NCBI GenBank assembly: GCA_016840165.1 | Contig: JAEOSU010000032.1 | Coordinates: 74,680 to 138,679, forward strand | Reading direction: 5' to 3' | From: Promethearchaeota archaeon | GTDB taxonomy: Archaea > Asgardarchaeota > Lokiarchaeia > Sigyniarchaeales > SOKP01 | Length of the DNA stretch: 64,000 nt | Part shown: piece after piece, positions 16,820 to 35,739 of the stretch | Layout: the number at the start of each line of letters is the position of its first letter | Position numbering within the stretch: position 1 is the stretch's first letter | Program-made: the position numbers and the translations under genes | Notes under the pieces: generated by a model | Databases searched by the model: none | What the model was told of the DNA's origin: nothing | What the model saw: only the letters and a program-made list of their open reading frames with translations

Positions 16820-18136
16820 TTAAGTTATTTTTTCAATCTTATTGATAAAATAAATATCTACTTTTTTAATATCACTTATGCTTTTAAGTTTTTTATCTAC
16901 AAGGTAGTAGAAATCTTTAATCGAGCTAATTTTTATATTTATTAATAAATCATGATAACCAATTAAAGCATGTATAGCAACAATCCCATAATTTTTTAAT
17001 ATTTTAACGGGTAATAACCCCATCGAACCTTTTCTTAAGGTAATTAATAAATAAGCATTTACCATATTTTTAACTTCATGGGCATAACGTAAAATTATGG
17101 AGATCACTATCAGAAAGATGAATATTATCAGAAGCTCAAAAGGAAAGAATTCACTAACTAGAATTACTGACAAGATGATTGAACCCATCGGATCTATCAG
17201 ATTTAAGATACTACTCCACTGGCTATAAGTTAGATTCAATGATTTCCAATTTACATTCGCAAGGTATATGAGTAAATAAGGAATGATGGTCGAGAAAATA
17301 ATGAGATAAATGATTTCCCATCGTTCAAGATATAAGAAGATATTTGTAAATTCATTAAAAAATAAGATAATTTCAAGCTTTAAATCACTAAAAATCGGTA
17401 AGAAATTTAAGACCATTAAAAAGGGTATCATTAGTAAAGTTCCAATAAGAAATGATAAAGACATTTTAATTAAGAATCGTGGAATTTTGTAATATTTATT
17501 TTCATTAATGCTGGTTAACTCCAATTTGGAATATGAATCCTTATTAATGCCTACATAAAGAAATGATATCGAAACACTAAATAAGATAAGATAAACAAAT
17601 CCATTAAGAGAAATTGGTTCACCATGAAGTTGAGCACTTTGATATGAGACAAATAAAATTATTAAAATTGCAAAAAACATCAAAGCAATATATAAGGCTT
17701 TAAAAACATCGAATTTTTCAAAATTTCGACCTGCTTCATATATAGCAATGATAATTACGCTTAATAAGAAACCAATCATCGTAAATGAAATTGACGTGAC
17801 CTTTAATGTGAGAAAAAAGAAGACAAGATTGAGAATAACTCCGCAAAATCCAATTAAAATATAATAGTGATAATTTCGTATATTGTTGAATCTTCTATTC
17901 TTATGCCTAATATTTTCAAACAGGAGTTTGATAGAAATTTTTGCATTATTGGTTAAATGATTATTTATTAGAGTAAACAAAATCGCAATAAATAATAGAA
18001 ATGAGCCCGAGACAGTAAATCGAATAAAAATTATCATAAATACGGAAATCTCGGAGACCAAATCAGAAACTAAAACAGGAATAAAACTCCATAATAGATT
18101 TGCAACAACTATGTTGATTACATACTTGTTCTGCAT
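16820..18136 (-). CDS. DMT/EamA-like transporter fused to a C-terminal Lrp/AsnC RAM domain
   Basis: ANLLWS...IFIRF and STIIPY...NLIDPMGSIILSVILVSE (EamA repeats, about 10 TM). The last 81 aa (MVNAYLLI...ALIGYHDLLINI...) follow the RAM pattern. Confidence 0.75.
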   Translation of the reverse strand: MQNKYVINIVVANLLWSFIPVLVSDLVSEISVFMIIFIRFTVSGSFLLFIAILFTLINNHLTNNAKISIKLLFENIRHKNRRFNNIRNYHYYILIGFCGVILNLVFFFLTLKVTSISFTMIGFLLSVIIIAIYEAGRNFEKFDVFKALYIALMFFAILIILFVSYQSAQLHGEPISLNGFVYLILFSVSISFLYVGINKDSYSKLELTSINENKYYKIPRFLIKMSLSFLIGTLLMIPFLMVLNFLPIFSDLKLEIILFFNEFTNIFLYLERWEIIYLIIFSTIIPYLLIYLANVNWKSLNLTYSQWSSILNLIDPMGSIILSVILVSEFFPFELLIIFIFLIVISIILRYAHEVKNMVNAYLLITLRKGSMGLLPVKILKNYGIVAIHALIGYHDLLINIKISSIKDFYYLVDKKLKSISDIKKVDIYFINKIEKIT

Positions 18137-18371: not shown

Positions 18372-19631
18372 ATGCCAAGTTCAAAAGATTTTATTGATAT
18401 GGATCATGAGTATTGTGCTCATAATTATCATCCCATACCCGTTGTTATTAGTAAAGCTGAAGGGGTTTGGGTATATGATCCAGAAGGTAATAAATATTTA
18501 GACTGCTTATCAGCATACTCAAGTCAGAATACGGGACATTGTCATCCCGAAATTATTAATGCATTGAAAGAACAAGCTGATAAGGTCACACTTACATCTC
18601 GTGCATTTCATAATGATATGATGGGCCCGTTTTTGAAAAAGCTCTGTGATATTGTTGGACCACATGTTAATGATCCAAATAATTCAGGAATCATGAGTAT
18701 TCCAATGAATACGGGAACAGAAGCAGTAGAAACTGGATTAAAAGTCTGCCGTGCATGGGGATATATAAAGAAGAAAATTCCTAAAGACGAAGCAAAAATA
18801 ATCATCTGTAGAAATAACTTTCATGGAAGAACGATAACTATAGTAGGTTTTAGTACAGATATTTCTGCAGTACGCTATTATGGAAATTTTGGTCCTTATA
18901 CCCCTGGGTTCGTAATAATACCCTATGGAGATGCTGATATCTTAGAAAATACTATTTTAGAATTGGGTCCTGAAAAAGTTGCGGGATTCTTATTCGAGCC
19001 TATTCAAGGAGAGGCGGGAGTAAATGTTCCTCCAGAAGGATATGTAAAAAAAATCCGAGAAATTTGTACCAAATATAATGTCTTAATGTTAGCTGACGAG
19101 ATTCAAACTGGTTTTGGCAGAACTGGTGAGTTATTTGCTTGCGATCATGAAAATGTGAAACCTGATATGTTACTTTTAGGCAAAGCTCTTGGTGGAGGTG
19201 TTTATCCTGTCTCGGCAATTGTGACAACTAAAGATATTGTTGGACCAGACGTAATCAAACCTGGAACACACGGATCCACTTTTGGGGGAAACCCACTTGC
19301 ATCAGCAGTTGCTATGAAATCACTTGATATTCATATTGATGATCACCTTGCCGAAAGAGCGAAAAGAAGAGGGGGATACTTCATTGAAGGGCTTAGAAAG
19401 ATCGCATCGAAAAATACTATCCTCCCTATCAAAGAAATACGTGGTAAAGGATTATTAATGGCAATTGAATTTACAACAGATGCGAGGCATATTGTAGAGA
19501 TGTTGAAAGATAAAGGAATTTTAGCTAAGGATACCCATTCCACCACTATACGTTTTGCTCCACCTTTAATAATTACAAAAGAACAAGTGGATTGGGCTCT
19601 ACAAATTATTGAAGCAGTACTTGTAAAATAA
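18372..19631 (+). CDS. rocD: Ornithine--oxo-acid aminotransferase
   Basis: AHNYHPIPVV, LSAYS, MNTGTEAVET, FHGRT, EPIQGEAG, LGKALGGG, HGSTFGGNP. Confidence 0.92.
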   Translation: MPSSKDFIDMDHEYCAHNYHPIPVVISKAEGVWVYDPEGNKYLDCLSAYSSQNTGHCHPEIINALKEQADKVTLTSRAFHNDMMGPFLKKLCDIVGPHVNDPNNSGIMSIPMNTGTEAVETGLKVCRAWGYIKKKIPKDEAKIIICRNNFHGRTITIVGFSTDISAVRYYGNFGPYTPGFVIIPYGDADILENTILELGPEKVAGFLFEPIQGEAGVNVPPEGYVKKIREICTKYNVLMLADEIQTGFGRTGELFACDHENVKPDMLLLGKALGGGVYPVSAIVTTKDIVGPDVIKPGTHGSTFGGNPLASAVAMKSLDIHIDDHLAERAKRRGGYFIEGLRKIASKNTILPIKEIRGKGLLMAIEFTTDARHIVEMLKDKGILAKDTHSTTIRFAPPLIITKEQVDWALQIIEAVLVK

Positions 19632-22474: not shown

Positions 22475-23386
22475 CTATTTAACATAGAAGTGGGTTCCTG
22501 CTTTCTCTTCTAAAGCATCCTTAATTTTTTCAATAGAAGTTATAATAGCTCTTTTCCCTCCCTTTTCTAAGAAGTTAATTACAGCTTCCACTTTAGGTCC
22601 CATACTTCCTGGTGGGAAATGTCCTTCATTTAAATATTTTTTAGCTTCAGATATAGAAACTCTTTCTAAAAATCTCTGATTTGGCTTTCCATAATGAAGT
22701 GCAACCTTTTCTACATCTGTTGCGATTAATAAAATATCTGCTCCAACTTGCTCCCCTAACTTTGAACTCGCAAGATCTTTATCAATAACTGCTTCTACAC
22801 CAGATAAGCGTTTTCCTTCTTTTATAACTGGTATACCCCCTCCACCACAAGCAATAACAATCCATCCTCCTAGCTCCATCAACCGCTTTATTTCTCGCCA
22901 TTGATAAATTTTTTTTGGTTTTGGAGAGGGAACAACTCTACGCCATCCTTTCGCTGTTTGAACATATCCTGGTTTAGGCTCATCATATGCAGGTCCTATA
23001 GGTTTTGTTGGATTATGGAACGCGGGATCTTGAGGATCAACTTTCACATAGGTGAGAACAGTAATAAAAAGTCTTTCTTCATCTAATCCTATTCTCATTA
23101 ACTCTTCATCTAGCGTTGACTCAATCATGTATCCAATTTGACCTTGAGTTTCTGCAACCAAAACTTGTAATGGTCTTTTAGAAACCTCAGAAGTAGCCTC
23201 TTGTTGCATTAAAAGCATCCCAACTTGAGGCCCATTCCCATGTGTAATAATAAGTGAGAAATCTTTAGAAAGCTCCGCTAATTGACTAATTGGGACTCTT
23301 AGATTCCTGAATTGCTCTTCTGTAGTACCTTCTTCTCCAAATCTAATTAATGCATTTCCACCTAGCGCAACAATTAAGATCGTCAT
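22475..23386 (-). CDS. arcC: Carbamate kinase
   Basis: VALGGNAL, THGNGPQVG, PTKPIG, WRRVVPSP, GGGGIPV, AVIDKD, GSMGPK. Confidence 0.95.
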   Translation of the reverse strand: MTILIVALGGNALIRFGEEGTTEEQFRNLRVPISQLAELSKDFSLIITHGNGPQVGMLLMQQEATSEVSKRPLQVLVAETQGQIGYMIESTLDEELMRIGLDEERLFITVLTYVKVDPQDPAFHNPTKPIGPAYDEPKPGYVQTAKGWRRVVPSPKPKKIYQWREIKRLMELGGWIVIACGGGGIPVIKEGKRLSGVEAVIDKDLASSKLGEQVGADILLIATDVEKVALHYGKPNQRFLERVSISEAKKYLNEGHFPPGSMGPKVEAVINFLEKGGKRAIITSIEKIKDALEEKAGTHFYVK

Positions 23387-25135: not shown

Positions 25136-26068
25136 TCAAAACTTTCCCCGTAAAAACAACATGATTGCTTTTTGGATGTGTAAACGGTTTTCCGCTTGGT
25201 CAAAGACTATTGATTGGGGTCCATCAATTACTTCTGCTGTTTGTTCAAACCCTCGCATTGCGGGTAAACAGTTCATGAAAATTGCATCCGTGTTTGCTGC
25301 CTCCATAACTGAGGAAGTAACTTGATATGGCATAAATGCTTTTTTCCGCGCGTCTTCTTGTTCCTTGGGAATGCCATAGCTCATCCAACTGTCTGTATAT
25401 ATAATATCCGCTCCCTTTGCAGCATCTAGTGTATCATGTATAACTTCTACTTCAGCATCGGTTTTTTTTGATAGCTCTGCAACCTCACTTAGCACTTCTA
25501 GTTCTGGCGTATATTCTGGAGCCTCAGGGCAAGCTACATATATTTTCCACCCAAATAAGGCGCACATTCGCATTAAATCATAAGTGACATTATTATGAGC
25601 ATCACCGAAATATGCCAATTTTTTTCGTTCGAGATTTCCTTTCTTTTCCTTAATCGTTTGGAAATCTCCTAAAATTTGACAGGGATGGGCGTAATCATCT
25701 AGCATATTAATTACTGGTACACTTGAATATTTGGCAAGATCCCAAATATCTTGCCGCTTATATACCCGAGCTGCAATAATATTTACGAACCGTGAAGCAA
25801 CTTTTGCGGTGTCTGAAATATTCTCTTTTACTCCTAAAGGTGAATCTTTAATTGAGTAAAAGATGGCATGACCTCCTAATTGTTGCATACCTGTTTCAAA
25901 TGAAATGCGTGTTCGAAGGGAAGGCTTTTCAAAAAGCATAAGAAGGGTTTCATGCTTAAGTGATTTATAATATTTCCCTGGATATTTTTTTATCTCCATT
26001 GCTTTGTTTATAATAAGTTCGCATTCCGCTCTTGAAAGATCTGAAATCTTATGTAAATGTCTAACCAT
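25136..26068 (-). CDS. arcB: Ornithine carbamoyltransferase (catabolic context)
   Basis: KPSLRTR, HPCQ, TDSWMSYG, FMNCLP, QAENR. Confidence 0.9.
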   Translation of the reverse strand: MVRHLHKISDLSRAECELIINKAMEIKKYPGKYYKSLKHETLLMLFEKPSLRTRISFETGMQQLGGHAIFYSIKDSPLGVKENISDTAKVASRFVNIIAARVYKRQDIWDLAKYSSVPVINMLDDYAHPCQILGDFQTIKEKKGNLERKKLAYFGDAHNNVTYDLMRMCALFGWKIYVACPEAPEYTPELEVLSEVAELSKKTDAEVEVIHDTLDAAKGADIIYTDSWMSYGIPKEQEDARKKAFMPYQVTSSVMEAANTDAIFMNCLPAMRGFEQTAEVIDGPQSIVFDQAENRLHIQKAIMLFLRGKF

Positions 26069-26176: not shown

Positions 26177-27931
26177 TTATGACTTATTTGGATTCATATT
26201 TGATTTTTCATAATCTTCTAATTTTTCATTCTTAAGCTGCCTTAAACTATCGAAGTCATAGGTTTCCTCGAAAAATAAATCAAACGGATCTTTAATATCT
26301 TCTAGTATTGGCTTAGAATAAAAATTTTCATACAAAAACGAGCCTTTATCAGTTATATCTATATTGTCTTCTCTGTCTAGTGTTAAAATTCCATTAGCAA
26401 TCATATCTTGGACAACAGCGCTGATCCCACGCTCTTTATAAATATAAAGACCAAAATAAGAAAAGCTTGTATAAACTTCTTCGCTTTTCCTTAAAGAATC
26501 CTGAAACCTTTCGTTTAATTCATTTACAGTAATTTTTGTTGTTAAATTATCATAATAAACTAATAAGATCCATTTAATTATGTATTCTTTAATATTTTCT
26601 TCATATGACATTTGAAACTTTTCAAATTCAAGTTCTTCACCTTGTCCTTTTATAAATTCAACGAATATTTCAATCACTTCTCTGAATATGAAGTAACTGA
26701 TGATTATTGCAATGATTGGGTCAAAATAATACATAAATGGTATTCCCTGGGATCTACCAAATTCAGAGAGTAATGCTCCCAATATTATACCTATAGAAAG
26801 CAAAATATTAACCCTAGAATCAATTGCACTAGCAACTAACGAAGAATTTCTATTCTTTTTTCCAACGAAATTTTTCAACACCCGTAAATAAGTGTTCAAA
26901 AATATAGATACAATGGAAATGATTATTGCTATATATGGGACTTCAATCGGTTCGGGCCCAGTGATTAATGAAATTATTGACTCATAAATGATTGATGAAC
27001 CCGCAAAAATCATTAATAATATTAGAAGAATATTCACAAGCTTTTCTTTTTTAAATCGAATTCCCAAACCTATTAATATTACGGCTAAACAATCGAGGAA
27101 GTTCTCGATCCCTTCTGCTCTTAGTGATTCTGAACTAAATGTACCAATTGATATCTTGAGTATACTAAGTAGAAATAATCCAATGAAAGATCTGATTAAA
27201 ACTCCCTTGCTATTTAAAACTGCGAGATATTTCTTAATTTGAGAATTTAGAGTATCTTTCCATAATTTATATTGCTCTCTACCCTCCTTGCTTAAGTTGA
27301 CTATAAATTTTTCATCTATATCCGCCATTCTAATACCACATAATTGATATATTGAAGATGCGGAAGTTTCTTCATTAAAATAGATTTCTGGTATGAAAAC
27401 ATTAGTAATTCCCCTAATTCGATTTTTTAAACGGATGAATTTCATATTCCCCTCTTTATATAAGTAATGTAAAGCGGCATATTCAACTCTATTAATAGGA
27501 AATAAACTTGATTTTCTTCTATGAAAAGAGACTGCGATGATTCTAATCAAGTGATTAATTGATATAAGCGTGAGAACTATAATTCCTAATAAAAAAATAA
27601 AATTAGTTATAGGACCAAAACCAATATAACTATTGTATCTTAGGTAATAAAAAAGGAAATAAATTTGTACATAGAGAAAGATTATTCCAAATAATATCCA
27701 AGGAATTAATAAATTTCTAACAACTTTCTTAATGTGGAATTGCTTGAAAAAATTATTAATTGCTCTTCTTAAAAACGGGGCAATGAAAAAAACACCAACA
27801 TAAGTAAATATAAAGCTAAACTGAAATGTACCAGTCAGTATTATTTCTATGATCGATGAAATTAAAGAAATTAAAAAATAAGAAACTAATACTATTTTAT
27901 AGTTAAATTTCCATACCCTATTGAGTTTCAT
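26177..27931 (-). CDS. CDF (cation efflux)-like transporter with an extra N-terminal membrane domain and two winged-helix-like domains
   Basis: SESLRAEGIENFLD, SSLVASAIDSRVN, YFDPIIAIIIS. wHTH-like segments end in VNLSKEG and IDITDKG. Confidence 0.7.
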   Translation of the reverse strand: MKLNRVWKFNYKIVLVSYFLISLISSIIEIILTGTFQFSFIFTYVGVFFIAPFLRRAINNFFKQFHIKKVVRNLLIPWILFGIIFLYVQIYFLFYYLRYNSYIGFGPITNFIFLLGIIVLTLISINHLIRIIAVSFHRRKSSLFPINRVEYAALHYLYKEGNMKFIRLKNRIRGITNVFIPEIYFNEETSASSIYQLCGIRMADIDEKFIVNLSKEGREQYKLWKDTLNSQIKKYLAVLNSKGVLIRSFIGLFLLSILKISIGTFSSESLRAEGIENFLDCLAVILIGLGIRFKKEKLVNILLILLMIFAGSSIIYESIISLITGPEPIEVPYIAIIISIVSIFLNTYLRVLKNFVGKKNRNSSLVASAIDSRVNILLSIGIILGALLSEFGRSQGIPFMYYFDPIIAIIISYFIFREVIEIFVEFIKGQGEELEFEKFQMSYEENIKEYIIKWILLVYYDNLTTKITVNELNERFQDSLRKSEEVYTSFSYFGLYIYKERGISAVVQDMIANGILTLDREDNIDITDKGSFLYENFYSKPILEDIKDPFDLFFEETYDFDSLRQLKNEKLEDYEKSNMNPNKS

Positions 27932-28025: not shown

Positions 28026-29189
28026 TTACTTCAAAACTTCCTCTCGAGAATAATCTCGATTAAATGAAAGATCTTCTAAAATCTCTTTATCTTGAGTTCT
28101 TAATTTTTCCCTTACAAGACGACTAAGCAACTCTCCCACTGCTGGACCAAGCATGAAACCCTGACCACACATCCCGACTGCGAGAAGAAAGCCTTTTATA
28201 TTATCTATTTCACCAAGAATAGGATTTCCATCAGGAGTCATTGGGTATAATCCTCTCCACGTCCTTCTTACTTTTATATTTTTTAATCGTGGAATCAAGT
28301 TGATCATTCTCTTAGTTATTTGTGGTAAGAATGAACTAGTTTCTCTTCTGTCTACTCCTATAATACTAGGTTCAGGGGTAAGACAGAAAATGATTTTTCC
28401 TTCATTGTTTTGATAAAAGTAGTAGTTTTTAGAATTTCCAAATTTAGGATCTTGTGCCGGGCGTATATCTACTATCATTGGATTAAAAAATTTTTTAACT
28501 GGTTCTGTTATTCCAGCTTCATGAGATTCTGATTGCACATCAACATCTAAATCAACCATTTTTGCTATTGACCTAGCATTTGCACCTGCAGCGTTAATAA
28601 CAAATCGACTACTATAGGTTGCTTTATTTGTTTTTACTCCAACTATCTGATTATTTTTTGTTAGGATATCAATTACGGTCTCATTAAATTTATACTCTGC
28701 CCCATGTTCCCTCGATTTGCGATAAAAGGCGTGTAAAGCTAACAATGGAGAGGCATTTCCATCTTCAGGACTATAGGTTCCGCCCAGTAATCCATTAGAA
28801 TTTATACCAGGAATAATTTCTTCGATCTTTTCTGAATTTACATAATTGATGTTTAAACCATAAGTTTTTTGAGCTTGGACAGTCCTTTTTAGTACATCTT
28901 CATCTTTTTTTGTATATACGACGAAACAATAGCCTCCTTGGCTCCACCAGATATCATCACCATGTTTTTCTTGCCAACTTGAAAAGATTTTTATAGAACG
29001 TTGACATATTTTAATTTTAGCTTTATGAGTATGTGTTGCCCGAATGCCGCCAATTGCATGTTTATTATCACCTTGCGATACAGAAGGAAAGGAATCAATC
29101 ACTAATGTCTTTAATTCTCCTTGTGAGAGCGCTAAGGCAGTGGGTACACCTACACTACCTGCACCGATAATAATTGCGTCATACTCCAC
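28026..29189 (-). CDS. FAD-dependent amino-acid dehydrogenase (sarcosine oxidase beta / dye-linked proline dehydrogenase beta-like)
   Basis: IIGAGSVG, INAAG, RTWRGLYPMTPDGNPILG, GMCGQGFMLGP. Confidence 0.85.
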   Translation of the reverse strand: MEYDAIIIGAGSVGVPTALALSQGELKTLVIDSFPSVSQGDNKHAIGGIRATHTHKAKIKICQRSIKIFSSWQEKHGDDIWWSQGGYCFVVYTKKDEDVLKRTVQAQKTYGLNINYVNSEKIEEIIPGINSNGLLGGTYSPEDGNASPLLALHAFYRKSREHGAEYKFNETVIDILTKNNQIVGVKTNKATYSSRFVINAAGANARSIAKMVDLDVDVQSESHEAGITEPVKKFFNPMIVDIRPAQDPKFGNSKNYYFYQNNEGKIIFCLTPEPSIIGVDRRETSSFLPQITKRMINLIPRLKNIKVRRTWRGLYPMTPDGNPILGEIDNIKGFLLAVGMCGQGFMLGPAVGELLSRLVREKLRTQDKEILEDLSFNRDYSREEVLK

Positions 29190-29191
29190 TC

Positions 29192-31276
29192 TTAAGGCTC
29201 CTCCTTGTTTTTATTCACTTTTGTAAAGATACCCATCGGAACTTCAATAAAAAGGGGACGTTTCGTACCTTCATTAATTTGATCAACAGAAACACCCTCC
29301 TCTCTAAATATACGATTTATTAAAGGTGTACACGTTTTTCCTCCACATGCCCCCATACCTACTTTAGTTAAAGCCTTGAGTTCATTAAAATCTCTAACTC
29401 CGTATCGTATCCATTTCCTAATCTCTCCAACACTTACTCGTTCACAACGGCACACAATAATATCATCATCCGTTCTTTGAGATTGGTAAAGATCGATCGA
29501 TTCGTCATAGGTTGCTTTATCGAGCTTAATAGCAGTCGCTATCTTTGCAATATTTTTTGGCAATTTTACCGAAATAAGTTGAGTTTTTGGGAACTCTTTT
29601 AAAATTCGAGAACGAGAAACAGGGAACTTGCCAAGATCACCATCTTCACTCAACACATACAAATTCTGCCCAACTTCTAACTTTTCATCACTTAATTCTA
29701 AGGGAAAGGTGACAGATGGATTATCTTTGTCCTTTCGATAATCTACTAATGTGACTGCTAAACCCGGACAGACAGCTACACATTTTCCACAACCGATACA
29801 TTCTTTATCCCCCATAAAATAAGGCAATTGGGTTATTTGATCGTCAATAGTCTTTATTTGTTCTTGAGGACATACTGTAGTGCAAGGATTGCATGGAATT
29901 TCTTGAGTACAATGAAAGATCGGCATTACTCCTTCTTCTTGTTTAGGTAGTTCGATCATCTTAGGTGAGGGAGGTTTAGCTTTCATTATCTCTGCTTTTC
30001 TCTCTAAATCGGTTAAATTGAAACCATGTGAATATCCCATCTCATTAAGCATTTTTATTGCCTCAATCTTTCCGGTATATATCGCAGCTGAGGCTTCTGC
30101 GATTTCTTGGGCGTCGCCTGCAACCCATACTTTAAATCCAAATTGTATTGCTTTGGAATAAAATTCATCTACGGGATTTAAACCCACGGCTATTAAAATA
30201 GTATCACAAGAAAATGTTTTTTCTGAACCTGAAATTAAATTTCCCTTATCATCTAACTGACTGATAGTAATAGATTCAACCTTATTCTTTCCATTTGCCG
30301 AAATAATTGTATGTTTTGTTAAGATAGGAACCCCTAAATTTCGCAGTTTATCCTCGTGGACTTTATATCCCCCACATTGGGGTAGTGCTTCAATTAAGCC
30401 TACAACGTGAATTCCTGCCTGAATAGCATGGTAACCGGCAATTAGTCCTACGTTACCTCCTCCTACGATGAAGATTTTTTTAGCACATCTAACAAAATCA
30501 CGATTTACGAGGGTTTGAAAGGCGCCTGCACCATAAACTCCTGGTAAGGTATTTCCTGGAAATACCAACATTTTTTCCCGTGCTCCCGTTGCAACTAAAA
30601 GATACTCGGGCTTAATTAGCATATATTCCATGTTTTCCTTTAAAACTCCTACAATTCCATCGCTAAAAACCGCTATTGCCGTTGATTTTAACCATACCTT
30701 CACAGAAGCCAAATTTCTTACTTCTTCACCGAGTATTTGACCTATTTCTATTCCTCGTTTCCCCGCATAAACATCTTCTTGAGATCCGAAAAATTTATGG
30801 GTTTGAAGAACTAATTTTCCTCCTAAATGATTCTTATCATCAATTAAGAGAGTATCAATATTAAATTCCCCTAATATTTTTGCAGCAGATAATCCAGCTG
30901 GGCCCGCTCCAATAATTAAGACCTTATGTTCAACTAATCGAGGATTTCCCGTTTGTGGATTATTATCAACGTCAGGTAACTCCGGTAAACCATTACAAGG
31001 CTCTATTTTCATTTCCTCTTCAAGGAAAGTCATACAGGCTTTAACTGGGATGCCATTTGCTATCACATTACATTGAGAACATTGTCCGTTAGCACAAAAA
31101 ATTCCTTGATCTGCATTATCCTTAGGATGATGTCCAAAAATTTTTATGTTATTGAGAAATAAGGCAGATGATATAACCATTCCCTCAAAAGCAGTTAACT
31201 TCTCACCATTAAATGTGAATGAAATCTTCTTTCTTTTCGGTATCTCTAAAATTGGGTGCTGGCTTATAGTGTCCAT
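29192..31276 (-). CDS. Fused 2Fe-2S / FAD-NAD oxidoreductase / 2x4Fe-4S ferredoxin / BFD-like protein (proline dehydrogenase or sarcosine oxidase alpha-like)
   Basis: FCANGQCSQC; GAGPAG and GGGNVG; CTQEIPCNPCTTVCP and CIGCGKCVAVCP; VCRCERV...GACGGKTC. Confidence 0.85.
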   Translation of the reverse strand: MDTISQHPILEIPKRKKISFTFNGEKLTAFEGMVISSALFLNNIKIFGHHPKDNADQGIFCANGQCSQCNVIANGIPVKACMTFLEEEMKIEPCNGLPELPDVDNNPQTGNPRLVEHKVLIIGAGPAGLSAAKILGEFNIDTLLIDDKNHLGGKLVLQTHKFFGSQEDVYAGKRGIEIGQILGEEVRNLASVKVWLKSTAIAVFSDGIVGVLKENMEYMLIKPEYLLVATGAREKMLVFPGNTLPGVYGAGAFQTLVNRDFVRCAKKIFIVGGGNVGLIAGYHAIQAGIHVVGLIEALPQCGGYKVHEDKLRNLGVPILTKHTIISANGKNKVESITISQLDDKGNLISGSEKTFSCDTILIAVGLNPVDEFYSKAIQFGFKVWVAGDAQEIAEASAAIYTGKIEAIKMLNEMGYSHGFNLTDLERKAEIMKAKPPSPKMIELPKQEEGVMPIFHCTQEIPCNPCTTVCPQEQIKTIDDQITQLPYFMGDKECIGCGKCVAVCPGLAVTLVDYRKDKDNPSVTFPLELSDEKLEVGQNLYVLSEDGDLGKFPVSRSRILKEFPKTQLISVKLPKNIAKIATAIKLDKATYDESIDLYQSQRTDDDIIVCRCERVSVGEIRKWIRYGVRDFNELKALTKVGMGACGGKTCTPLINRIFREEGVSVDQINEGTKRPLFIEVPMGIFTKVNKNKEEP

Positions 31277-31306
31277 TTACAATCGTTTTATTTTCTTATT
31301 TGAAAA

Positions 31307-33487
31307 TTATTGATATGGAGCGATTATATCAATCATATCATCATAACCCAAATCTAATTCCTTTAATTTTTGAATAGTTGGACAACCATTTTTATTCCAA
31401 CCTCTCTCAAAATACACTGCATCCTGTAATTTTGTATATTGTTTTTCCCGATGTTTTCTTAAAATTTTGATCTTTTCTTCTACGTTTTTATTTGAAATAT
31501 CAAATCCAAGTTCTTTTAATTGGCTATCATATCTTTCAATCCGACTATTATATTCTAAAGGGGTCACTGGTCCCATTGCTCGATAGGGAAAGTTGGAATC
31601 GTGTTCTCTTAACCCCTTCCCTTGTCGGATGTTAAAAATCCTTTGAAGGTTATATACCCGTTCAGACATTTTAATTAAATCATCGGGTGCGGATTGACGA
31701 CCAGTTACCGCCGAAAAATATTTTGCGTACCACTTAACGTGATCGGGTACTTTCGCTCGGACTAACTCACCAGTTTCGGGATCTTTTATTGGATAATCTG
31801 CTTGGCTTTCAGGTTGAATGTCATTCCAAGGTAATTTACAAAGTCCACATAAACTAAACCATGTTCGCCAATACGGAAACCACCGCAATGCTCTTGCCTT
31901 ATCCTCAAATGTAGGTATCGATTGACGGATAACATCCTCAAAAATAAGCCAAGCTTCGTCATGTTGGGGCCCTTTATTTGTAAATCCATAACCACCTTGT
32001 TGAGAAAGAGATTCTTTGGTAACATACTCGGAAAACTCTAATCCTTTATGTTCCATTCCAATGTCTTGCAGAAATTGAGGATCAGCATTGTATTTCTCTA
32101 CGAATAGTTTTTTCATTTCTCTTATTCCTTGACCTGCAATAGCTCCAAAATTCTCGTCTCTCGCCATCTGGTGGATTAATTCTACGGCATCTCGTGCATT
32201 TCCGAAATTTAAATCCAAACCTCCTGTGATATCTTTATTTAAAATTCCCGCTTCAAAACATTCCATGACAAACGCGATCCCCGTCCCTACGGATATGGTA
32301 TCAAGACCGTAAGTATCACAATAAAAATTGACCTCTAATACCCATTTAGGATCCCACACTCCCCAATTAGAGCCTACTCCAGCAATTGTCTCATATTCTG
32401 GACCATCAACAATAATTGATTGCCCTTTAAATGGTCCTGTCATTACTTCATACCCTTCTGAATAATGAGAACAACTAACCGTACAGCCTATCCAACAACC
32501 ATCTGCTCCTTCCTTCCCAGAATATATCTCTTTCCATACATCACGTGCATAAGGTATATCTTTACCGGGAATCTCTTTATGTGCTCCATATCGAAAATTT
32601 TCAGTTGGAAGCAGATCTGCTGCATTCATGATATCTGGCAAATGTCCTGTGCCAACCCTTCTCATTTCGTTCTGTTTGGGATCCAACCTAATTACTTCTT
32701 GCGTATGGATTATACCTACTTTTCGAGCCTCTTCTAAATCTGCTGGATTATTTGAACCAATTGTTGCTTTTGGAGAATGGCACACCAAAGCTTTAATATT
32801 TTTATCTGCAAATACAGTACCAATACCTCCGCGTCCTGCTTGTTTACAAGATGCCCAATCTCTTCCCTTTACAAACCAAGAGAAGTTTAATATCCCCCAT
32901 TTTGTATGTTTCGCAGCTGGACCAGTGCTCACCACTGAAACCCGTTGCTTTTCATTTGGATCCTCAGCATATTTATCAGTTAACTGCTGTGTGAGTTCAT
33001 GGGAATATTGAGAATAATTATCGTCCTGCTCCACGGACTCAATCTGAACTACATGGTTGAGGCCATCTATAAAAATGATAACTTCTTCTTCAGATTTCCC
33101 TTGGATCTCTAAGGCATCAAATCCCGAAAATTTCAGATAGGGACCAAAATATCCTCCTACATTAGAATCAATAATAATCCCTGTTAAAGGAGAAATAGTG
33201 GTCACAATTGACTTTCCAGAACCAGGATAGAAAATACTACCACCTAATGGTCCAGAAGAAATACAGATTTCATTCTCAGGATCATCCCATTTAACTATTC
33301 TATCCTTGGGTAAATTATTCCACATTAACCATAAGTCAAACCCTTTGCCACCGATGAATTTATCTTTCATTTTATCCGATACGGTTTTTATTTGGATGTC
33401 TTTCGTGGTTAAGTTAATATATAAGGTTTGATTAGTATATCCTTTTTGAACTTCATCAAATTGATATTCTTTTCTCGCTAAAATCAT
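31307..33487 (-). CDS. Tungsten aldehyde:ferredoxin oxidoreductase family protein
   Basis: FIGGKG, DSNVGG, AGRGGIG, GCWIGCTVSC, DGPEYET, DTYGLDTIS, GLCKLPW, YFERGW. Confidence 0.88.
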   Translation of the reverse strand: MILARKEYQFDEVQKGYTNQTLYINLTTKDIQIKTVSDKMKDKFIGGKGFDLWLMWNNLPKDRIVKWDDPENEICISSGPLGGSIFYPGSGKSIVTTISPLTGIIIDSNVGGYFGPYLKFSGFDALEIQGKSEEEVIIFIDGLNHVVQIESVEQDDNYSQYSHELTQQLTDKYAEDPNEKQRVSVVSTGPAAKHTKWGILNFSWFVKGRDWASCKQAGRGGIGTVFADKNIKALVCHSPKATIGSNNPADLEEARKVGIIHTQEVIRLDPKQNEMRRVGTGHLPDIMNAADLLPTENFRYGAHKEIPGKDIPYARDVWKEIYSGKEGADGCWIGCTVSCSHYSEGYEVMTGPFKGQSIIVDGPEYETIAGVGSNWGVWDPKWVLEVNFYCDTYGLDTISVGTGIAFVMECFEAGILNKDITGGLDLNFGNARDAVELIHQMARDENFGAIAGQGIREMKKLFVEKYNADPQFLQDIGMEHKGLEFSEYVTKESLSQQGGYGFTNKGPQHDEAWLIFEDVIRQSIPTFEDKARALRWFPYWRTWFSLCGLCKLPWNDIQPESQADYPIKDPETGELVRAKVPDHVKWYAKYFSAVTGRQSAPDDLIKMSERVYNLQRIFNIRQGKGLREHDSNFPYRAMGPVTPLEYNSRIERYDSQLKELGFDISNKNVEEKIKILRKHREKQYTKLQDAVYFERGWNKNGCPTIQKLKELDLGYDDMIDIIAPYQ

Positions 33488-33570: not shown

Positions 33571-34914
33571 TTACTTATTAAGGAATTTTTGAATAAAATC
33601 ATCTAATACCTTTTCAATAGTCGGTTCTTTTACCGGCTCAATATCATAAGATACTTTAACAATTGGTTTATTCACATTTACTAACTTTTTCAAATCGATA
33701 GGACTTCCATTTAAAATTATATCCGCTTTTACCTTGTTAAGGGTTTTTTCTAAATCTTCGATCTGCTGATCAGTGTAACCCATTGCTGGCACGATTTCGG
33801 TAATTTGAGGAAATTCCTCATAAACATCTTTCATAGAACCTGCTAAATATGGTCGCGGATCTACAATTTTAGCTCCGGCATTCTTTGCAGCTACATAAGC
33901 GGCGCCTATTGCCATCCCTCCGTGTGTGAGCGTTGGACCATCCTCCACCACGACCACCTTCTTTCCTTTCAGCTTGAGTGGGTCTTCAGCTTTCACCACG
34001 GAATTTGTATATATGCGAATTGCATCCGGATTCAACTCTTGGAGATTCTTTTCGACAATCGCAACATCTTCTGGTTTCGCACTATTCATTTTATTGATAA
34101 CAAAGGCATCTGCATATCGTGTATTGACCTCTCCGGGATGATATTTATTTTCGTGTCCTGGTCTTAAGGGATCAACGACAATAAACAAAAGATCGGTAAT
34201 ATAGAATGAAATTTCATTATTTCCTCCATCAAATATTATGACATCCGCTTCTTTTTCTGCTTCTCTGACAATCTTCTCATAATCTACCCCTGAATAAATA
34301 ACAAGTCCTTGTCGGATATAAGGCTCATACTCCTCACGCTCCTCTATAGTACAATCATATTTATCTAAATCCTCATATTTCTCAAATCGCATAACGTTTT
34401 GCTGAACTAAATCTCCATAGGGCATAGGTTCTCTTATAGCAACTACTTTATATCCCTTCGATTTTAGATATCTGTATACTGCTCTTGATACCTGACTTTT
34501 GCCGCATCCTGTCCGTACCGCACATACTGCAATAACTGGTTTATTTGCTTTTAGTTGCGTAAATCGACCGGAAATGAGACGATAATCAGCACCTGCACTC
34601 AACGCACGAGATGCTTTATGCATAACCTCCTCATGTGAAACATCAGAATAAGCAAAAACAACTTGGTCAACATTATGTAATTTTATTGCTTGTTCTAATG
34701 CTTCCTCTGGTATCATGGGAATTCCTTTTGGGTATAATTTTCCAGCTAATTCAGCAGGAAATTTTCTTTCAACGTCCTCTGTGGTACCAACGTTCTGTTC
34801 ACCTGCGATTGTGAAGGCGACAACCTCGTATTCTTCATTATCTTTAAAGACTGTGTTAAAAACATGGAAATCCATCCCTAAAGCTCCTATAATTATAACC
34901 TTTTTCTTCATCAT
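33571..34914 (-). CDS. arcE: cDPG-synthetase-like P-loop protein, probable arginine synthetase
   Basis: MDFHVFN, AYSDV, AVRTGCGKSQ (P-loop), EPMPYGDL, TIEEREEYEP, DGGNN, VEDGPTLTHGGM, PAMGY. arcB, arcC and rocD are nearby and there is no arcA in the window. Confidence 0.78.
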   Translation of the reverse strand: MMKKKVIIIGALGMDFHVFNTVFKDNEEYEVVAFTIAGEQNVGTTEDVERKFPAELAGKLYPKGIPMIPEEALEQAIKLHNVDQVVFAYSDVSHEEVMHKASRALSAGADYRLISGRFTQLKANKPVIAVCAVRTGCGKSQVSRAVYRYLKSKGYKVVAIREPMPYGDLVQQNVMRFEKYEDLDKYDCTIEEREEYEPYIRQGLVIYSGVDYEKIVREAEKEADVIIFDGGNNEISFYITDLLFIVVDPLRPGHENKYHPGEVNTRYADAFVINKMNSAKPEDVAIVEKNLQELNPDAIRIYTNSVVKAEDPLKLKGKKVVVVEDGPTLTHGGMAIGAAYVAAKNAGAKIVDPRPYLAGSMKDVYEEFPQITEIVPAMGYTDQQIEDLEKTLNKVKADIILNGSPIDLKKLVNVNKPIVKVSYDIEPVKEPTIEKVLDDFIQKFLNK

Positions 34915-35217: not shown

Positions 35218-35739
35218 ATGAAAGAAGTACCTGATTATGAAAAGTATCCGATTAGCGAGGAAGAAATGGGAAAGCGCTATAAGAATTGGACAAAAGCCTT
35301 AGCTCAGATGGCAGTGTTGCTTTATACAGTAGGTAAGGAAGTCGGAGGCGAAAAATTCGTCGAAAGACTTAAGGAAGAAAATCGAGAAAGAGGTAAGAGA
35401 GATGCGGCAACAATAATGAAAATAGTGGGTTGTAAACCAGAAGATTTCAAGGATTGCATGAAGATTCCCAAGATGGTTGATTTCATAGATGATAGATATG
35501 CGAATTTCTGGGATGGGTATATTGAAAACACGCCTAAAGCTTTTGAAAAAGCACTCTTTACTTGTCCGGTTACCGAACCATGGTCGATGGAACCTGATCT
35601 TTGTGAAGTATTAATTGGTGAGTCTCTTAAAAGCTTTGCCAAAGCATTAAACCCGAAGTTTAAAACTGAAGGATTTACAAAATTACTCACTAAGGGTGAT
35701 AAGTGCTGCCGATACAGAATTGAATTGCAGGAGGACTAA
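35218..35739 (+). CDS. ATC-hydrolase/V4R-like small Cys protein
   Basis: TCP...DLCEV...LNP.....TKLLTKGDKCCRY pattern. Confidence 0.6.
   Translation: MKEVPDYEKYPISEEEMGKRYKNWTKALAQMAVLLYTVGKEVGGEKFVERLKEENRERGKRDAATIMKIVGCKPEDFKDCMKIPKMVDFIDDRYANFWDGYIENTPKAFEKALFTCPVTEPWSMEPDLCEVLIGESLKSFAKALNPKFKTEGFTKLLTKGDKCCRYRIELQED

Follow-up and report, generated by a model that had tools for sequence, protein, structure and literature searches.

In Bacillus subtilis, ornithine aminotransferase (RocD) and proline dehydrogenase (PutB) converge on 1-pyrroline-5-carboxylate (P5C), which is oxidized to glutamate in the Roc and Put routes by RocA and PutC. The arginine synthetase pathway of Thermococcus kodakarensis, which comprises ArcE (TK2200), ornithine carbamoyltransferase (OTC), carbamate kinase (CK), and the ornithine aminotransferase TK2101, leads from arginine through ornithine to glutamate-5-semialdehyde (GSA) and P5C, with proline synthesis as its described outlet (PMC11032458). 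Dye-linked L-proline dehydrogenase is known in two types from the Thermococcales, the alpha4beta4 enzyme exemplified by Pyrococcus horikoshii PDH1 and the alpha-beta-gamma-delta enzyme of Thermococcus profundus (PMC8704557). The aldehyde:ferredoxin oxidoreductase (AOR) family of tungsten enzymes can accommodate a C5 carboxy-aldehyde, as is evident from the formaldehyde ferredoxin oxidoreductase (FOR) of Pyrococcus furiosus, which was crystallized with glutarate and whose supposed substrate is a C5 (carboxy-)semialdehyde (PMC12096430). A classification of the WOR enzymes recognizes five classes (I to V), with just five clades of known role, and includes neither a proline dehydrogenase-type flavoenzyme nor an amino-acid semialdehyde among its classes and clades (Putumbaka et al. 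2026, PMC13328260). Here, we describe a gene island in which these systems meet: a 64,000-nucleotide stretch of a Promethearchaeota genome (contig JAEOSU010000032.1 of assembly GCA_016840165.1; hereafter, the window) carries an AOR/WOR-family gene directly followed by the alpha and beta genes of a proline dehydrogenase-like flavoenzyme, amid genes for arginine and ornithine metabolism.

We put at roughly even the chance that this AOR oxidizes GSA to glutamate as a GSA:ferredoxin oxidoreductase. That reading is the best available because GSA/P5C is the sole metabolite common to the recurrent partners of the AOR clade: RocD produces GSA, proline dehydrogenase produces P5C, and ProC consumes P5C. 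The data presented below establish gene identities, conservation of catalytic residues, conserved linkage, and co-occurrence; what the AOR and beta act on, which carriers take up the electrons, and which way the reactions run we infer as follows. Between them, the three genes would specify two distinct enzymes whose reactions join at a single metabolite. Alpha-beta, which belongs with the archaeal dye-linked L-proline dehydrogenase, HcnABC, and opine dehydrogenase family, would most likely oxidize proline to P5C, with the electrons leaving through the iron-sulfur chain of alpha to NAD(P)+, ferredoxin, or flavodoxin. The ArcE-like protein, OTC, CK, and RocD would convert arginine to ornithine with a yield of ATP and ornithine to GSA, which equilibrates with P5C. 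The AOR would then be the common last step, oxidizing GSA to glutamate, reducing ferredoxin, and replacing the NAD-dependent P5C dehydrogenase (RocA/PutC).

The logic is that of the Bacillus Roc and Put routes, but a tungsten-pterin enzyme working at ferredoxin-level potential is proposed here where B. subtilis employs an NAD-dependent aldehyde dehydrogenase (ALDH), and the window alpha-beta, a candidate proline dehydrogenase, belongs to a different family from PutB. The AOR is unrelated in fold to P5C dehydrogenase, an ALDH superfamily enzyme, and would be a functional analogue of that enzyme and not a member of its family. The gene set for the route from arginine through ornithine to GSA/P5C, with an ArcE-like gene at its head, resembles that of T. 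kodakarensis; what the window adds is an AOR and a proline dehydrogenase-like pair within the cluster, which suggests an outlet to glutamate.

Linkage of the AOR to genes of proline and ornithine metabolism

The window comes from a Loki-type Asgard archaeon with a 3.6-Mb genome that is 99.7% complete. A scan with one genome per species assembled 80 loci with relatives of its AOR, 42 of which are Loki-type (67 to 85% identity), and across these 42 the gene order ArcE-AOR-alpha-beta-OTC-(CK)-(RocD) is nearly invariant. Among the Loki-type loci with sufficient flank, alpha comes after the AOR in 34 of 35, beta is present in all 34, OTC in 30 of 31, and ArcE lies upstream of the AOR in 21 of 22; CK (20 of 30) and a convergent RocD (19 of 30) were scored within the 10-kb flank fetched. 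The gap between AOR and alpha is 18 to 44 nt (about 36 nt) in 26 of 34 loci. For the window itself, the minus-strand open reading frame coordinates reproduce exactly the spacings recorded in an earlier note on this DNA, namely, 83 nt between ArcE and AOR, 30 nt between AOR and alpha, and 2 nt between alpha and beta, all four genes being co-directional. That note had suggested a neighborhood analysis of the AOR clade for linkage to rocD, arcE, and proline dehydrogenase genes, and the outcome is positive in Loki-type loci and extends to a proline dehydrogenase-like pair in Desulfobacterales and to proC in six loci.

The Desulfobacterales carry the same three genes in a different order and in the other domain: GntR-alpha-beta-AOR is found at six loci (L071, L072, L074, L082, L084, and L087). 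In the alpha tree the Loki and Desulfobacterales proteins are near relatives, not shown as exclusive sisters, and co-transfer of an AOR-alpha-beta module between Loki-type archaea and Desulfobacterales is possible. The sole other recurrent neighbor of the AOR clade is proC, found at L070, L076, L081, L082, L084, and the bathyarchaeal locus L086. It lies just after the AOR and co-directional with it in L070 and L081, is convergent in L076 and divergent in L086, and in L082 and L084 is placed upstream of GntR; the two proC products tested against TIGR00112 both scored above its cut-off. On the AOR tree, the proC-linked members occupy no fewer than three separate positions. At a single Bathyarchaeota locus (L068:2596-3906), the gene directly behind the AOR orthologue encodes a HemL-family aminotransferase (glutamate-1-semialdehyde aminomutase-like), which scores 419 bits where the subfamily cut-off is 398.

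The AOR and its clade

The 726-aa protein matches AFOR_N (PF02730; E 7.5e-48) and AFOR_C (PF01314; E 6.6e-93), and its best PDB matches are 1AOR (174 bits) and the FOR structure 1B25 (159 bits). It shares the two-domain fold family of P. furiosus FOR (1B25/1B4N) and AOR (1AOR), aligns with them over nearly the full length, and keeps their catalytic residues and cluster cysteines. All four catalytic second-shell residues listed in PMC13328260, Thr243, Glu313, Tyr427, and His448 in the numbering of P. furiosus AOR (PfAOR), are identical in the phmmer alignment with 1AOR, and the cluster ligands Cys288, Cys291, and Cys295 are aligned, with the spacing C-x3-C-x3-C here against C-x2-C-x3-C in the P. 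furiosus enzymes. For the fourth cysteine ligand, the expected region (residues 523 to 588) contains a GLC motif, which neither alignment paired with PfAOR Cys494. On this evidence the protein is an AOR/WOR-family member, and it is predicted to be of the tungsten type. The window AOR is about 100 to 120 residues longer than P. furiosus FOR and AOR, with inserts after the His448 region, and, at just 159 to 174 bits to those enzymes, represents a separate clade with a conserved gene context of its own.

Nine AOR paralogues are encoded in the genome, and the tree splits the window AOR and 79 relatives, with 100% support, from six of the genome's paralogues. The clade is strongly conserved, at >70% identity across >100 protein clusters. 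Neither a WorS polyferredoxin nor a WorABC module adjoins the AOR, and no small iron-sulfur open reading frame fits the 83-nt or 30-nt gap, so that by the rules of PMC13328260 the enzyme would fall in WOR Class I and outside the multisubunit Classes II to V, which have an adjacent WorS together with WorN, WorABC, or membrane partners. The cofactor residues of WorL are shared with the described classes, but linkage to a proline dehydrogenase-type flavoenzyme occurs in none of the five, and the supplements to that paper make no mention of Loki or Desulfobacterales taxa.

The flavoenzyme pair

Pfam resolves the alpha subunit into Fer2_4 (residues 16 to 92), Pyr_redox_2 (118 to 375), a 4Fe-4S dicluster domain (456 to 516), and a BFD-like 2Fe-2S domain (607 to 659). 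Its PDB matches include sarcosine oxidase alpha and PH1363 (1Y56_A, the alpha subunit of P. horikoshii proline dehydrogenase; 65 bits over residues 13 to 272), and the motif C-x4-C-x2-C-x11-C, taken from PMC4575208, is readable in the chain. The closest solved relative of beta is 1Y56_B, the beta subunit of P. horikoshii PDH1 (189 bits, E 1e-54, residues 4 to 362), well ahead of dimethylglycine dehydrogenase (5l46_A; 80.6 bits) and sarcosine oxidase beta (about 80 bits); the gene is single-copy in its own genome. These sequence features place the pair with the archaeal dye-linked L-proline dehydrogenases (alpha/beta), with L-proline as the candidate substrate.

The earlier note had listed 2Fe-2S, FAD/NAD, 2x4Fe-4S, and BFD-like modules in one 694-aa chain and likened them to Thermococcales proline dehydrogenase; Pfam bears out the list, and the likeness holds in the Pfam and PDB matches and in published descriptions of the family (PMC4575208, PMC8704557). 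Alpha shares with the Thermococcales enzymes an N-terminal 2Fe-2S-like domain and a flavin/nucleotide fold. It differs from them in that a single chain adds the 2x[4Fe-4S] and BFD-like 2Fe-2S domains, and the window pair differs from the Thermococcales complexes in lying within an arginine/ornithine island and adjoining an AOR.

We scanned the 8 longest of 150 listed alpha representatives for fusions, which turned out to join alpha to flavodoxin, to a polyferredoxin with an MvhD/FlpD-like domain, to a GltD-like insert, or to beta; no AOR-alpha fusion of the Rosetta-stone kind occurs among these 8. Natural fusions of alpha to beta confirm that the two subunits work together, and fusions to other electron modules indicate that alpha passes electrons to low-potential carriers. 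In 17 of the 42 Loki-type loci, though not in the island of this window, arcE and the AOR are separated by a flavodoxin gene (187 aa; e.g., L010:2256-2819). Together with P0245, a metagenomic alpha relative of 867 aa with flavodoxin fused at its N terminus, this placement points to flavodoxin as an electron partner.

Other alpha relatives deserve mention in their own right. P0247 (1,310 aa) and P0252 (1,179 aa) carry a polyferredoxin and MvhD/FlpD-like fusion or a GltD/NfnB-like insert, architectures that are typical of electron-bifurcating systems. A 728-kb contig of assembly GCA_019828565.1 (L101:8001-11573) encodes a 1,190-aa alpha-beta fusion that is 47% identical to the window alpha; its neighbors (WD40, LRR, VTT, and zf-C2HC5) look eukaryotic, which raises the possibility that this fused dehydrogenase belongs to a eukaryote. 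At L094:3418-10112, a stand-alone alpha-beta pair (54% identical to the window alpha) sits between glycosidase genes of families GH127 and GH20. Hydroxyproline-linked arabinosides are substrates of GH127 enzymes, and the setting hints at hydroxyproline as the substrate in that lineage.

Distribution across Asgard genomes

Among 151 Asgard genomes, the AOR clade is present in 60, distributed over families f1 (20), f2 (2), f5 (10), f7 (23), and f22 (5). A full-length fused alpha is found in 29 genomes, 27 of them with the AOR, and 30 of the 41 genomes in which RocD exceeds its cut-off likewise have it. The AOR and alpha of f2, f5, and f22 co-occur though unlinked, either on separate contigs or, on complete chromosomes, at a distance of more than 1 Mb, which makes their association independent of adjacency. 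The co-occurrence rests on few lineages: AOR with alpha in four families, alpha alone in two, and AOR alone in one. That one family is f7, for which we considered a pathway hole (ProC without ProA or RocD, leaving the AOR as sole source of P5C) and rejected it, as f7 is also without ProC.

The genome from which the window derives has proC and an ornithine cyclodeaminase-family gene; proA, proB, argC, and argG were not found in it, nor were a PutA-type proline dehydrogenase and a convincing arginine deiminase. The organism is either an arginine auxotroph or the user of an unconventional route. In none of the 151 Asgard genomes did the P5C dehydrogenase model reach its cut-off, with nothing above about 370 bits in the Loki family; this and the missing PutA-type enzyme count in favor of the GSA reading. 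Since the model falls short everywhere, the complementarity of AOR and P5C dehydrogenase is a weak test.

Gene identities and layout of the island

Families were assigned from Pfam domains and curated models with bit cut-offs, and structural relatives from PDB matches. RocD, OTC, and CK all exceed the cut-offs of their curated models (Table 1). The rocD gene is convergent to the island, which also includes a penicillin-amidase-like gene downstream.

Table 1. Genes of the arginine/ornithine island in the window, with the match on which each assignment rests
Feature	Position	Strand	Match
ArcE-like protein, 447 aa, candidate arginine synthetase (Arg + ADP + Pi -> citrulline + NH3 + ATP)	33571-34914	-	weak 9sxb match
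AOR/WOR-family enzyme (WorL), 726 aa, candidate GSA:ferredoxin oxidoreductase	31307-33487	-	AFOR_N + AFOR_C
Fused alpha subunit, 694 aa, ATG start	29192-31276	-	Pfam modules
Beta subunit, 387 aa, GTG start, DAO family, candidate L-proline (imino acid) dehydrogenase	28026-29189	-	DAO E 1e-57, full-length
Membrane protein, 584 aa, cation-diffusion-facilitator core	26177-27931	-	Cation_efflux E 6e-17
Ornithine carbamoyltransferase (ArcB/OTC)	25136-26068	-	NF001986 366 bits (cut-off 306); TIGR00658 351 bits (cut-off 281)
NAD(P)-type ALDH, 500 aa	23510-25012	-	Aldedh E 3e-140
Carbamate kinase (CK, ArcC)	22475-23386	-	TIGR00746 374 bits (cut-off 358)
Ornithine--oxo-acid aminotransferase (RocD), GSA producer	18372-19631	+	TIGR01885 523 bits (cut-off 378)

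The ArcE-like protein has no Pfam match. It is a P-loop protein, soluble and weakly similar to cyclic 2,3-diphosphoglycerate synthetase (PDB 9sxb, E 1.5e-5), and the label "arcE" is a fair one for this sequence because arginine synthetase ArcE is reported to be distantly related to that same enzyme and to have homologues in Lokiarchaeota (Michimori et al., PMC11032458). We had also entertained the membrane arginine/ornithine exchanger called ArcE in Streptococcus (PMC5300872) and dropped it in favor of the arginine synthetase. Upstream of arcE, on the opposite strand, a 173-aa open reading frame (35218-35739, plus strand) with several cysteines and no Pfam match is unusually conserved, at 94 to 97% identity in four other Loki loci against 86 to 88% for ArcE.

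Several island genes vary between loci. For the membrane protein with the cation-diffusion-facilitator core, none of the 80 related loci offers a match spanning half or more of its length; it occupies the place between beta and OTC where eight Loki loci have an amidohydrolase (Amidohydro_3, 540 to 545 aa; L009:7378-9015 and 7 others). A full-length ThiC-family radical-SAM gene (423 aa) lies between AOR and alpha in L022 (12334-13605), L028, L036, and L039, and a ThiC-family gene also follows the AOR in L023 and L032. The island ALDH scores 420 bits against the succinic semialdehyde dehydrogenase model (cut-off 521) and 304 bits against the L-glutamate gamma-semialdehyde dehydrogenase model (cut-off 648), so that it resembles the former more; elsewhere, an ALDH is found in the island at one locus only (L012). 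Next to rocD lies a gene for an EamA-family transporter (16820-18136, minus strand), which recurs beside rocD in L013, L027, L029, L060, and L063 at 50 to 58% identity and may be the amino-acid carrier of the island.

Alternative readings

Several observations weigh against assigning the AOR to GSA, and a number of them favor a broad or otherwise specialized enzyme that serves a regulon for amino-acid fermentation by acting on succinate semialdehyde, aminoaldehydes, or the aldehydes of 2-oxoacid decarboxylation, and not on GSA, a role we hold to be unlikely while giving it real weight. In f7, the AOR occurs in 23 of 26 genomes (55 to 61% identity), and RocD, the fused alpha, ProC, and ProA were not found in that family; most bathyarchaeal and Thermoplasmata AOR loci, moreover, have uninformative neighbors. 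The AOR clade as a whole is thus not tied to P5C genes, and of the GSA branch proposed in the earlier note the conserved linkage stands but universal linkage does not, given the f7 genomes and the alpha-beta pairs that lie apart from any AOR. The Loki genera g3 and g6 have AOR, ProA, and ProC without RocD or alpha. A conventional ALDH resembling succinic semialdehyde dehydrogenase sits inside the window's own island and could compete for the semialdehyde step, the genome has nine AOR paralogues, and in peptide fermenters PfAOR-type enzymes act as scavengers of broad range (PMC13328260). Against so general a role stand the sharp separation of this clade from the other paralogues, its high conservation, and the recurrence, in both domains and in varied gene orders, of neighbors (RocD, the proline dehydrogenase-like pair, and ProC) that all make or use P5C/GSA. 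The proC-yggT-pilT arrangement is a common bacterial synteny, and the Desulfobacterales loci have a yggT-DivIVA-pilT block downstream, so part of the proC adjacency in that group may be inherited context. The flavoenzyme invites a related doubt: its family also holds D-hydroxyproline, opine, and sarcosine enzymes, and the substrate of beta is not settled by its likeness to L-proline dehydrogenase: a related opine dehydrogenase subfamily is inactive on proline, and in one case sequence closeness to that enzyme failed to predict activity on proline (PMC4575208). Alpha-beta might therefore act on another secondary amine or D-amino acid, such as hydroxyproline, sarcosine, or an opine-like compound, with the AOR clearing alpha-ketoglutarate semialdehyde, glyoxylate, or formaldehyde. 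We judge that combination improbable; the pair between GH127 and GH20 genes at L094 speaks for it, but the conserved neighbors indicate ornithine and P5C, and no hydroxyproline epimerase or pyrroline-hydroxy-carboxylate deaminase was seen among the recurrent Loki and Desulfobacterales neighbor families, for which part of the neighbor open reading frames was family-scanned.

If GSA is the substrate, the same reaction might also run in reverse, with the AOR reducing glutamate to GSA/P5C at the expense of reduced ferredoxin and so providing an ATP-free entry to proline (through ProC) and ornithine (through RocD) that dispenses with ProB/ProA and the acetylated arginine pathway; we think this direction distinctly doubtful. 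AOR-family enzymes are known to reduce acids, proC is near the AOR in six loci and co-directional with it in two, no proA or proB scores above cut-off in the L086 and L084 genomes, and the source genome has proC while lacking detectable proA, proB, argC, and argG. ArcE, for its part, can run toward arginine in vivo (PMC11032458). It is accordingly conceivable, though again rather unlikely, that the AOR is a reversible glutamate/GSA enzyme and the sole bridge from glutamate to P5C and ornithine in a genome without ProA/ProB, ArgC, and ArgG, in which case the ArcE-OTC-CK-RocD island could also operate in reverse and lead from glutamate, without acetylation and at low ATP cost, to proline, ornithine, citrulline, and arginine. 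However, the L070 and L076 genomes also carry proBA, the island genes are catabolic and ATP-yielding, and an alpha-beta dehydrogenase would be redundant for biosynthesis given ProC; ferredoxin-driven reduction of an acid would probably be uphill unless later steps pull it, and the archaea in question, which are thought to feed on amino acids, may simply be auxotrophs. We give least credence to a single AOR-alpha-beta complex, a tungsten-dependent, PutA-like confurcating machine in which low-potential electrons from the aldehyde and high-potential electrons from proline would be pooled onto NAD+. The tight gaps of 30 and 2 nt would suit such a complex, the 2x[4Fe-4S] domain of alpha could dock on the AOR cluster, and the fusions and inserts of its relatives show that the alpha family plugs into varied electron modules. 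Yet two-gene units of a fused alpha and a beta, of the same architecture, stand without an AOR nearby in 3 of 3 bacterial contigs sampled, an observation that makes an obligate complex unlikely. Heimdall-, Hod-, and Thor-named bins, Bathyarchaeia, and Thermoplasmata in turn have the AOR, its length and inserts unchanged, and no alpha-beta with it; the separation of the genes in f2, f5, and f22 and the lack of an AOR-alpha fusion in the relatives scanned also count against one complex.

Significance

In the literature searched, no paper deals with GSA and a tungsten enzyme, and no GSA activity is reported for any AOR-family member, in agreement with the earlier note, which knew of no AOR characterized for GSA. 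Nothing relevant was found there on an AOR with a proline dehydrogenase, nor in the Prometheoarchaeum paper, and no paper among those searched describes the gene block. The new findings of this analysis are the triad in Desulfobacterales, the adjacency of proC, the alpha-beta pairs that stand alone, the fusion proteins, and the phylum-wide co-occurrence with its f7 exception.

If the AOR of this island does oxidize GSA, an AOR clade dedicated to an amino-acid semialdehyde would be a new addition to the family and a case of non-orthologous replacement of P5C dehydrogenase. Sediment Desulfobacterales also have the AOR-alpha-beta module, which suggests that it passed between partners with a common habitat. 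Arginine, ornithine, and proline would provide Loki-type Asgard archaea, the nearest prokaryotic relatives of eukaryotes, not only with ATP but also with reduced ferredoxin, and that gain would bear on the hydrogen- and formate-based syntrophy of Loki-type archaea.

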